64,000 nucleotides of DNA from an uncultured Alphaproteobacteria bacterium (GTDB lineage: Bacteria > Pseudomonadota > Alphaproteobacteria > Rs-D84). Location: positions 7,074-71,073 of the forward strand of contig CALXXD010000006.1 in NCBI GenBank assembly GCA_944392595.1, read 5' to 3'. This document shows, one piece after another, positions 14,445-63,628 of the stretch. The notes under the pieces are model-generated. The model worked only from the letters and a program-made list of their open reading frames with translations, made no database searches and was not told the DNA's origin. The first letter of the stretch is position 1. Each line of letters begins with the position of its first letter. The position numbers were made by a program, and so were the translations under genes.

Positions 14445-14562
14445 TTTATCTGTCCTTTGTTTCAAGTTAGGGTAAAACCCAAATATTTTTCTGTACCTGA
14501 TTCAGTTATGTGCGGGGATTGGCAGCGTTCACCCCACTCCCCACAAAATCAATCGTAACGTA

Positions 14563-14640
14563 CCAGATGTGTCCGGTTGGGATTGCGTAGTGTATTTGAC
14601 ATACATGAGCAAGCCCAACCGCGCGCAGATGGTGCGCTAT
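14563..14640 (-). ncRNA. Conserved two-stem hairpin element in the rpsR-rplI spacer (unknown family), copy 1
   Basis: Outer stem CGGTTGGGATTG / CAAGCCCAACCG (14574-14585 / 14610-14621), inner stem TGTAT/ATACA, conserved loop GCGTAGTG..CATGAG, flanking CCAGATG/CAGATG. A second copy at 63550-63628 has compensatory changes in both stems. Confidence 0.45.
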
Positions 14641-14649
14641 GATTGATTT

Positions 14650-14877
14650 TTATCCCAGATTGTTGCGAACGAATGGCAACAACCCCAAATGCCGTGCGCG
14701 CTTGATCGCTGTGGATAATTGACGCTGGTCTTTTTGGGATACGCCACTGATGCGCGCAGGAACGATTTTTCCGCGTTCTGTGATAAAGCGCGACAGTGTT
14801 TTGATGTCTTTGTAATCGATAACCTTGTCCTTTAACGGATTAGATTTTTTACGATAAATTGCTGCACGAACTGCCAT
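14650..14877 (-). CDS. rpsR: 30S ribosomal protein S18
   Basis: 75 aa. [49 protein letters not shown] is a typical S18 core. Confidence 0.95.
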
Positions 14878-63207: not shown

Positions 63208-63297
63208 TTAACTACTCCTTTTGTTGTTTCCGCCCGGGCAAACCCGGGATTGGTGTTGAGACGCGCGCCCTGACCCACCGGGGCCAGTAACGCGAAT

Positions 63298-63420
63298 TTA
63301 TTTTTGTTTATCGGCGTCAAAAAATATCATACGAAACATCTGGGCAAAAACGCTGTCGCCCTGCAAGAACGGCACGCGCTTTTTCGCATTTTTATAAGAA
63401 TCTTTCTTTTTCGTTGTCAT
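63298..63420 (-). CDS. Possible small ORF (40 aa) in the rpoA-rplQ spacer
   Basis: MTTKKKDSYKNAKKRVPFLQGDSVFAQMFRMIFFDADKQK, preceded by GGTGGA 5 nt upstream. No family recognised; it could be spurious. Confidence 0.25.
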   Translation of the reverse strand: MTTKKKDSYKNAKKRVPFLQGDSVFAQMFRMIFFDADKQK

Positions 63421-63549
63421 TTTTTCCACCAGTATATGTAAGAAATTAAAATTTATGAGATGATTGGAGACGATTGGCGGTTCGCTGCATAAGAACCGAC
63501 AATCGCGACAAGCATCCATAAAGTTTAATTGTAAAATTATTAGAGTGCG

Positions 63550-63628
63550 CCAGATGGCGATGTTTCCCGATTGCGTAGTGTAGTTGCCCTACATGAGCAA
63601 TCGGGAAACGCGCCAGATGACACGCTAT
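63550..63628 (-). ncRNA. Conserved two-stem hairpin element in the rpoA-rplQ spacer (unknown family), copy 2
   Basis: Outer stem GTTTCCCGATTG / CAATCGGGAAAC (63562-63573 / 63598-63609, 12/12 bp), inner stem TGTAG/CTACA, same loop GCGTAGTG..CATGAG and flanking GCGCCAGATG direct repeat as copy 1. Confidence 0.45.

Follow-up and report, generated by a model that had tools for sequence, protein, structure and literature searches.

Two hairpins located in ribosomal-protein operon spacers of the window (the whole 64,000-nt stretch that was analyzed) belong to a family of palindromic repeats found in Candidatus Enterousia (a gut-bacterial genus of the order Rs-D84; PMC12306168) and its close kin. 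The element is probably a non-autonomous, transposase-less repeat of about 112 nt of the REP/MITE-like kind, which is replication-polar and docked on stop codons. It encodes nothing. The family marks gene ends and not ribosomal-protein operons, because the same element also docks on efp and trxB, and on dnaN, ftsK, secB and other genes in relatives.

Two long hairpins in ribosomal-protein operons

The first-pass annotation had described two hairpins, at 14563-14640 (copy A) and 63550-63628 (copy B), and both are present there with the stems and loops as described. The two copies have in common the core GATTGC-GTAG-TGTAN-5 nt-NTACA-TGA-GCAAKC and are flanked by the boxes CCAGATG and CAGATG. They differ in their outer stems (CGGTTGGGATTG/CAAGCCCAACCG in copy A vs GTTTCCCGATTG/CAATCGGGAAAC in copy B) and in their inner stems (TGTAT/ATACA vs TGTAG/CTACA). 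Folded as RNA, the 91-nt pieces of the + strand reached -46.3 kcal/mol for copy A and -48.2 kcal/mol for copy B, with z-scores of -6.5 and -9.1, respectively, against 200 dinucleotide shuffles, none of which was as stable (0/200). The - strand of the same pieces folds well too (-35.6 and -45.4 kcal/mol). The inner part of the hairpins was correctly delimited but their true length is larger: AT-rich arms (AAAATCAATC/GATTGATTTT in copy A and AAAATTATTA/TAATAATTTT in copy B) extend them to 112-113 nt (14542-14653 and 63529-63641). The full copy A folds at -60.3 kcal/mol on the + strand and -47.6 on the - strand, and the full copy B at -57.7 and -54.2, respectively.

All the flanking genes are encoded on the - strand, as identified with Pfam (S6, S18 and L9 at site A; RpoA and L17 at site B). 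The copies had been assigned to the transcribed strand, but the + strand that was quoted is the template and the mRNA carries its reverse complement. The spacers, estimated earlier at about 205 and 430 nt, measure 187 nt from the rpsR stop to the rplI start and 413 nt from the rpoA stop to the rplQ start. We built a covariance model (R1) from 29 copies of the element and distinguished two types of element, which are described below; the strand that reads GTAG in the core is referred to as the GTAG strand. The features of the two spacers are as follows:

14542..14653, + (GTAG strand): copy A, full type-1 element of 112 nt that holds the hairpin 14563-14640 (R1, 99 bits)
14586..14609, +: tip of copy A, CGTAG-TGTAT-TTGAC-ATACA-TGAG, where a GTA/GA internal loop and a G.T pair accompany a 5-bp stem (sequence, fold)
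14650..14652, -: TAA stop codon of rpsR (S18), under the AT-rich end of copy A (ORF, Pfam)
14506..14544, -: type-2 remnant, internally deleted, directly downstream of copy A in gene direction (similarity to intact type-2 elements)
63529..63641, + (GTAG strand): copy B, full type-1 element of 113 nt that holds the hairpin 63550-63628 (R1, 97.5 bits)
63574..63597, +: tip of copy B, CGTAG-TGTAG-TTGCC-CTACA-TGAG (sequence, fold)
63636..63638, -: TAA stop codon of rpoA, under the end of copy B (ORF, Pfam)
63428..63521, -: type-2 element without its tip (~15 nt deleted), immediately downstream of copy B in gene direction (comparison with L217 and L218, in which the tandem partner found there is intact)

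A repeat family of Candidatus Enterousia

Model R1 recovered five copies in the genome of origin (977 kb; 84-109 bits), which lie after rpsK, efp, rpsR, rpoA and a thioredoxin-reductase-like gene (trxB). The exact core alone picks up a third copy of this genome, at the start of contig C14, abutting the end of contig C6 (the contig of the window) and directly after rpsK. The contig break at this place (L002 2490-2552 at the end of C6, L001 1-170 at the start of C14) falls inside a tandem partial duplication of the element. The rpsK-rpoA spacer also contains, on the opposite strand, a cysteine-rich ORF of 142 aa (L002 1934-2362) without a Pfam match.

Matches to R1 were found in 54 of the 63 sampled genomes of the genus, with 1 to ~25 matches per genome. 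Beyond the genus, R1 matched 3/8 genomes from other genera of the family and 2/29 genomes from other families of the order. Of 151 genus genomes, 103 contain the strict core pattern, at most 32 times in one genome and frequently as tandem copies that recur every ~95-105 nt. Within G096, and likewise within G119, near-identical copies occupy many loci.

Read on the GTAG strand, the type-1 consensus starts with AAAATWAAW (H1), a 3-nt loop, AATGRTWT (H2) and an AGAT box, continues inward with H3/H4 and the tip C-GTAG-TGTA-loop-TACA-TGAG (H5), and ends with the mirror arms, which bear a second AGAT box. The unit is a single hairpin of ~45 bp with the GTAG mini-hairpin at its apex. The H3/H4 segment (~15 bp) has a different sequence in each subfamily and keeps its complementarity, and H2 is bounded by purine-purine GA/GA loops formed by the facing AGAT boxes. 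In all copies, the H1 and H2 arms are inverted repeats, i.e., terminal inverted repeats of the sort that defines MITEs. The CAGATG sequences had been taken as a possible target duplication; they correspond instead to the conserved internal AGAT box of every type-1 copy, inside the arms H1/H2. Flanks resembling TA or TAA are frequent at the copies, yet they are indistinguishable from the palindromic AT-rich ends.

The type-2 elements present the arms TTCTGTGG.../...ATTGGAAG and a tip that is usually GCAG...TAAG. Both types have H1 and the tip stem in common and occupy the same kinds of site. Across 113 distinct copies, the columns of the tip are invariant or nearly so, and the length of its loop varies from 4 to 7 nt with the stem kept. 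The two sides of the tip internal loop were observed to covary between subfamilies (GTAG/TGAG, GCAG/TAAG, and GAAG or GACG/CGAG), including a T.G to C.A switch that would keep the wobble geometry. The compensatory stem changes reported initially from two copies hold across the family: 96.8% of the pair cells are paired among 56 distinct copies and 30 of the 36 pairs have changed on both sides. Pairing amounted to 72.8% in shuffled controls, with 0/500 reaching the observed value, and to 34-43% with slid partners.

Units are found singly or arranged head-to-tail in arrays. In the rpoA-rplQ spacers of L216, L220, L229, L233, L237 and L243, a small linker hairpin CTTGC-N3-4-GCAAGG(G/A)G separates the units, and the later units are devoid of the first arm.

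Overlap with stop codons and orientation relative to replication

Each of the five copies of the genome of origin overlaps a TAA with which an opposite-strand gene stops. Among the fetched loci, a long opposite-strand ORF stops no more than 12 nt from the end of the element for 55 of 57 copies; 53 of the stops are TAA and, in several cases (efp), the stop codon lies inside H1. The extragenic position just downstream of ORFs that characterizes REPs is therefore found for 55/57 copies. In relatives, the docked genes include dnaN, ftsK, secB, fabF, yebC, a secretin gene and pilC-type or other pilus genes. The gene that comes next runs in the same direction in 25 cases and is convergent in 24.

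Docking is confined to genes of the G-rich strand. On the 240-kb contig G132:C2, all of the 14 strong R1 matches are on the + strand. The GC skew of this contig is uniformly between -0.15 and -0.26, and 80 of its 217 long ORFs (37%) are on the + strand, such that the chance of 14/14 dockings on one strand is 0.63^14, or ~0.002. Overall, the GTAG strand was the C-rich strand in 107 of 110 copies, including the five copies of the genome of origin (5/5). From GC skew and gene-strand bias only, the G-rich strand is taken to be the leading strand and the GTAG strand to be the leading-strand template. The first-pass annotation had named, as an outcome that would refute its reading, an ordinary REP-like repeat with dozens of copies at random intergenic sites and no strand bias: there are indeed dozens of copies in relatives, but their placement is not random and they do show a strand bias.

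Strand asymmetry of the hairpin

We compared the two strands of the element. For type 1, it is almost always the GTAG strand that folds more stably (-47 to -60 vs -40 to -54 kcal/mol for the five copies of the genome of origin). On this strand, wobbles are predominantly G.T rather than A.C pairs (157 vs 11 in H2; 109 vs 0 in H5), and the same strand bears the GA/GA loops and the GTA/GA loop. This G.T excess is opposite to what a C-rich mutational skew would produce. These features of type 1 could mean that the strand antisense to the gene has a function as RNA or as DNA.

H4 and the type-2 copies behave differently. H4 is 92-95% Watson-Crick across 113 copies, with 14 G.T vs 25 A.C pairs when one semi-conserved pair is excluded. 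In type-2 copies, folding energies are similar on the two strands (-43.6 vs -42.1 kcal/mol) and the GTAG-type strand is favored in 16/28 copies. We had considered that the GTAG strand is always the structured one; this holds for type 1 and was dropped as a general rule because type 2 is symmetric. A hairpin form is favored over a protein site in duplex DNA because the loop varies in length (4-7 nt) while its stem is kept. Combined, the strand data fit a DNA palindrome kept on both strands better than a one-strand RNA, since H4 is mostly Watson-Crick, type 2 is symmetric and the inner loop of the tip varies between subfamilies; this leaves room for an RNA role.

Turnover at the two ribosomal-protein sites

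The same site may contain the element, be devoid of it or present another subtype in different species. At the rpsR-rplI site, 7 of 30 species have an empty spacer of 14-45 nt, and others contain type-1, type-2 or other inserts directly after the TAA. At the rpoA stop, 26 of 29 species have an element, which is of type 1 or type 2 or forms an array with a maximum of three units. Orthologues of copy B were found in seven relatives, in which H4 differs by compensated changes. Turnover at the rpsR-rplI site and near-fixation at the rpoA site are both real; the two ribosomal-operon sites are orthologous and old, and their copies are probably vertically inherited.

The long spacers are composites of an element and decayed elements. 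In the genome of origin, the rpsR-rplI spacer consists of copy A and the internally deleted type-2 remnant (14506-14544); read against intact type-2 elements of relatives (e.g., L073), this remnant would explain part of the spacer's length. The rpoA-rplQ spacer contains copy B, the tipless type-2 unit (63428-63521), a conserved 40-codon ORF and conserved hairpins before rplQ.

Several other conserved sequences were observed in these spacers. The 40-codon ORF (63298-63420, - strand; MTTKKKDSYKNAKKRVPF...FFDADKQK) lies between rpoA and rplQ and has no Pfam match; homologous small ORFs of ~40-60 codons are found at the same place in at least eight relatives and are missing in others. Paired hairpins directly upstream of rplQ (~63208-63297, - strand) are kept in all the relatives examined, in the order CCACG...CGTGG, CCCGG...CCGGG, GGAAAC and ribosome-binding site, and constitute a candidate L17 leader or regulatory structure. 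Just upstream of rplI (~14447-14490, - strand), we observed the conserved motif ATATTTGGG-N-TTT-N-CCCTAACTTGAAA, of which CCCTAACTT is kept even in the shortest empty rpsR-rplI spacers of relatives.

A synteny breakpoint between two related genomes (G132:C2 138938-139050 vs G006:C4 163220 / 172242) coincides with an element, which suggests that the repeats mediate rearrangements. The alignment of G132 (240 kb) with G006 (219 kb) gave no clean pair of empty and filled alleles: sites were either shared or surrounded by rearranged or unalignable flanks.

Search for known families, mobilizing enzymes and transcription signals

The first-pass annotation had proposed a comparison with Rfam, which gave no match to the hairpins. 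At gathering and permissive thresholds, the window yielded one tRNA only, the two spacers gave chance-level matches (E 0.5-10), and nine tip-bearing loci of other phyla gave no match. A literature search on motif words returned only primer sequences, and the Enterousia paper (PMC12306168) makes no mention of repeats.

We then searched for enzymes that could move the element. Of 151 genus genomes, 2 contain the Y1 transposase domain (Y1_Tnp; PF01797); the genome of origin (G000) lacks it, as do the copy-rich genomes G021, G006, G132 and G096. The Y1 gene of G028 encodes an IS200-type TnpA, and R1 detected no element beside this gene or beside the match of G163. Mobilization of a REP or REPIN by a RAYT was rejected on these grounds, Y1_Tnp being rare and without flanking elements. 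A REP has an unpaired GTAG at its end, ahead of the stem-loop; here, a GTAG does precede a stem of 4-5 bp, although deep within the element, where the 112-nt hairpin has its apex. Type-2 and other copies have GCAG, GAAG or GACG as the tag. The genome of origin encodes three tyrosine recombinases, including a XerD-type gene located 0.5 kb from the trxB copy; against the integron-integrase model, this recombinase scored 113.7 bits for a cut-off of 265. An integron attC site was also rejected, because the ends are AAAATWAAW... and not RYYYAAC/GTTRRRY boxes and because the recombinase examined is no IntI. Only four tip matches were found in IMG/VR, and a phage origin was discarded.

Scanning both strands for a terminator consensus called none at either element, and a canonical terminator was called after rplQ. 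An intrinsic terminator has a GC-rich stem that leads directly into a T run; the T run of the element pairs within H1. No promoter was called at the elements with a consensus scan, and copy A lacks the -10-like hexamers seen in H2. The genome of origin has a gene for RNase III.

The tip motif in other bacteria

We then extended the search of the tip beyond the genus. The exact 17-nt tip was found in 3 of the 400 other alphaproteobacterial genomes sampled, and a reversed-pattern control gave 1 match. In a collection of species representatives, the exact tip gave at least 120 matches. Among the matches listed are several Thiodiazotropha genomes, Sedimenticolaceae, Salinisphaera sp. RV14, Oceanospirillales, beta-proteobacterial and Neisseria-labelled MAGs, Burkholderiales, Desulfohalobiaceae, Longimicrobiales, Sulfurimonas, and some Clostridia and Bacteroidota MAGs, with mis-binning being possible for gut MAGs. 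Nearly every listed match is preceded by a C, which the pattern did not require, and forms the apex of a hairpin in which 25-50 pairs enclose it and the stems are unrelated. Stop-codon docking is seen again in gut and termite Alphaproteobacteria that have small genomes, and not in the larger tip-bearing genomes. No Y1_Tnp was found in two termite-gut relatives with the tip, and the Y1 genes of three other tip-bearing genomes showed no tip within the fetched flanks (up to ~1.5 kb).

In Candidatus Thiodiazotropha endolucinida (G572; L099 7321-7600), a MITE-like element that measures ~270-300 nt and has inverted ends of 40 bp was observed in at least 40 copies. This element bears the same tip motif on its first internal hairpin, and several contigs end inside it.

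We tentatively propose, as a conjecture that we consider unlikely, that the tip (C-GTAG-TGTA-loop-TACA-TGAG) serves as the handle of a trans-acting machinery specific for hairpins, encoded by the host or elsewhere in the genome. If true, there would be a cross-phylum class of transposase-less hairpin elements. Alternatively, these sequences might represent one class of structured RNA or single-stranded DNA signals located where genes end, which would have one protein partner in common and propagate in a replication-coupled manner. As it is common to several phyla, the tip offers a bait for such a partner.

Proposed mode of spread and competing explanations

The element lodges on, or supplies, the TAA with which genes of the G-rich strand end, and does so in one orientation. 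According to the explanation that we favor, it would spread and persist as a single-stranded hairpin or as cruciform DNA, with its tip read by a factor encoded elsewhere. This form is suggested by the loop that varies in length with its stem kept, by the variable stem being ~95% Watson-Crick without strand preference for wobbles, and by an orientation locked to replication. Part of the polarity may reflect the survivorship of palindromes: Trinh and Sinden (1991) reportedly observed that an asymmetric palindrome is lost by deletion more frequently if its more stable hairpin is on the template of the lagging strand. Within the rpsR-rplI and rpoA-rplQ spacers, it would simply be co-transcribed, as a hairpin between two cistrons of the operon. 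The near-constant occupancy of the rpoA site and the compensated orthologues fit a retained function as well as a hot spot.

The element might alternatively serve the host as part of the mRNA, on the sense strand, by shielding the upstream message from 3' exonucleases, by offering an RNase III site or by slowing the terminating ribosome (as REPs do in E. coli when no more than 15 nt from a stop), which would set the dosage of genes within operons. We regard this as possible, if rather unlikely. The overlap with the stop codon in 55/57 copies is consistent with such a role, as are the RNase III gene of the genome, the location inside co-transcribed ribosomal-protein operons whose empty form leaves 14-45 nt, and the rpoA site filled in 26/29 species with compensated stems. 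There are also precedents in REPs (PMC12306157; PMC3733652) and in Correia elements (PMC2649163). REPs lie <20 bp from the ends of upstream ORFs (PMC3733652) and those <16 nt from the stop lower translation (PMC12306157, citing its ref. 17); Correia elements in mRNA are RNase III substrates (PMC2649163). However, the sense strand of type 1 is the one with the weaker fold, with TC/TC pyrimidine loops and with A.C where the other strand has G.T. Moreover, 0/14 elements of G132:C2 are docked on genes of the other strand (37% of the long ORFs), which need 3' ends too, the rpsR-rplI site is empty without replacement in 7/30 species, and simple terminator scans do not call the element. Another explanation is a function of the GTAG strand as RNA, either as a one-way insulator or terminator that keeps antisense transcription (head-on to replication) out of genes of the G-rich, inferred leading strand or as a small hairpin RNA. 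In its favor, type 1 bears G.U pairs, tandem GA/GA loops and a GUA/GA loop resembling loop E, the orientation is fixed against the direction of replication, and 24/49 elements face a convergent gene. Nevertheless, we consider it improbable: type-2 copies lack the strand asymmetry, H4 has no G.U preference, no conserved promoter leads into the element (the -10-like hexamers being absent from copy A) and half of the elements have a co-directional downstream gene.

The main idea of the first-pass annotation, a ribosomal-protein operon signal (attenuator, processing site or protein-binding mimic), is largely refuted by the distribution of the element and is the least credible explanation of all. 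In its favor, three of the five copies of the genome follow rpsR, rpoA and rpsK. The tip loop also presumably resembles half of bacterial 5S loop E, judging from a reading of the sequence beside the E. coli 5S. Yet the two other copies follow efp and trxB, those of relatives follow dnaN, ftsK, secB, fabF, yebC, secretin and pilC-type genes, 7/30 species have an empty rpsR-rplI site, and no Rfam ribosomal-protein leader was matched. The loop-E region and helix IV of the genome's own 5S rRNA differ from the tip, which argues against a ribosomal-protein binding mimic; a mimic of 5S loop E for L25 is at most a lead, as the own 5S differs in the relevant helix. Of the three candidates put forward initially, the small structured mobile element comes closest to our results, and the ribosomal-protein mimic and the link to operons are unsupported. 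Mobilization of a REP or REPIN by a RAYT, or recombination of an attC-like site by a tyrosine recombinase, is very improbable as well. The GTAG tag directly 5' of a small hairpin recalls GTAG-REPs (PMC3733652); a conserved structure of variable sequence just after an ORF recalls attC, and so does the location of the better-folding strand on the inferred template of the leading strand, which is also that of sedentary chromosomal integrons (PMC5371416). In addition, the trxB copy has a XerD-type gene 0.5 kb away. But Y1_Tnp occurs in 2/151 genomes and without a flanking element, the tip-bearing termite-gut relatives have none, and other Y1 genes have no tip in their fetched flanks. In addition, the ends (AAAATWAAW...) are not RYYYAAC/GTTRRRY, the sole recombinase examined is a XerD by score (113.7 vs 265 bits for an integron integrase), and the docked genes are core genes in conserved synteny and not cassettes.

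Genomes of Enterousia are smaller than 1 Mb and tightly packed, yet they keep up to ~30 hairpins on the stop codons of essential genes. This retention in compact genomes, together with the rpoA site being filled in almost all the species sampled, is difficult to reconcile with mere junk DNA. A transposase-less REP/MITE-like repeat of this kind would constitute a natural system to study the spread of a repeat without a transposase, the effect of replication direction on the survival of palindromes, and the effect of a stop-codon hairpin on the expression of ribosomal-protein operons. The elements also have practical consequences: they break assemblies (the C6/C14 junction lies inside one) and they inflate spacers that annotators may take for regulatory leaders.

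Comparison with known systems

The family resembles the REP/BIME/REPIN sequences associated with RAYTs (PMC3733652; PMC2817692; PMC3116915), which are extragenic palindromes near the 3' end of an upstream ORF, with GTAG immediately before a stem-loop; their subfamilies present G.T pairs and stems that have changed in a complementary manner, their units form clusters, and their termini are able to supply stop codons. In contrast, a REP unit is 20-40 nt long and GC-rich, or forms an inverted doublet, whereas the Enterousia unit is a single 112-nt hairpin with GTAG at its apex. The Enterousia element further differs from REPs by its head-to-tail arrays, its low copy number (0 to ~30), the lack of a linked RAYT, its strict overlap with stop codons and its near-absolute orientation relative to replication.

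Correia elements of Neisseria (CREE/NEMIS; PMC2649163) are likewise palindromes of ~100-155 bp with inverted-repeat ends and a conserved core, which encode no protein, have no known mobilizing enzyme, form co-transcribed hairpins, show insertion polymorphism between strains and present AT-rich ends (AAATTTAAA-type). This likeness is one of architecture and of the lack of a transposase, not of established sequence relationship. Correia elements are further recognized by their specific inverted repeats and core, a TA duplication and RNase III cleavage of the transcript. Unlike the Enterousia element, CREE are mainly found 5' of genes, give rise to promoters and contain an IHF site, and docking on stop codons and replication polarity are not described for them.

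Integron attC sites (PMC5371416) are imperfect palindromes of 57-141 bp whose structure is kept while their sequence varies; they lie directly after an ORF in one orientation and have one folded active strand, which is located on the template of the leading strand within chromosomal arrays. The Enterousia element recalls attC of chromosomal integrons by its polarity; it differs from these sites by having no R/L box consensus and no integron integrase, and its neighbors are housekeeping genes in conserved synteny and not cassettes. Finally, palindrome-associated elements derived from IS200/IS605 are also hairpin-based, have an orientation tied to replication and insert beside a short specific sequence. 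The active strand of IS200/IS605 is the one on the lagging-strand template. In the Enterousia family, the Y1 transposase is absent and the better-folding strand of type 1 is on the inferred leading-strand template. No autonomous IS partner with the same ends was seen in a limited search. On this comparison, which includes possible roles as RNA, the family appears most like REP/BIME/REPIN sequences and Correia elements, and we would file it as a variant of the REP/MITE kind, with provisional status as a MITE.
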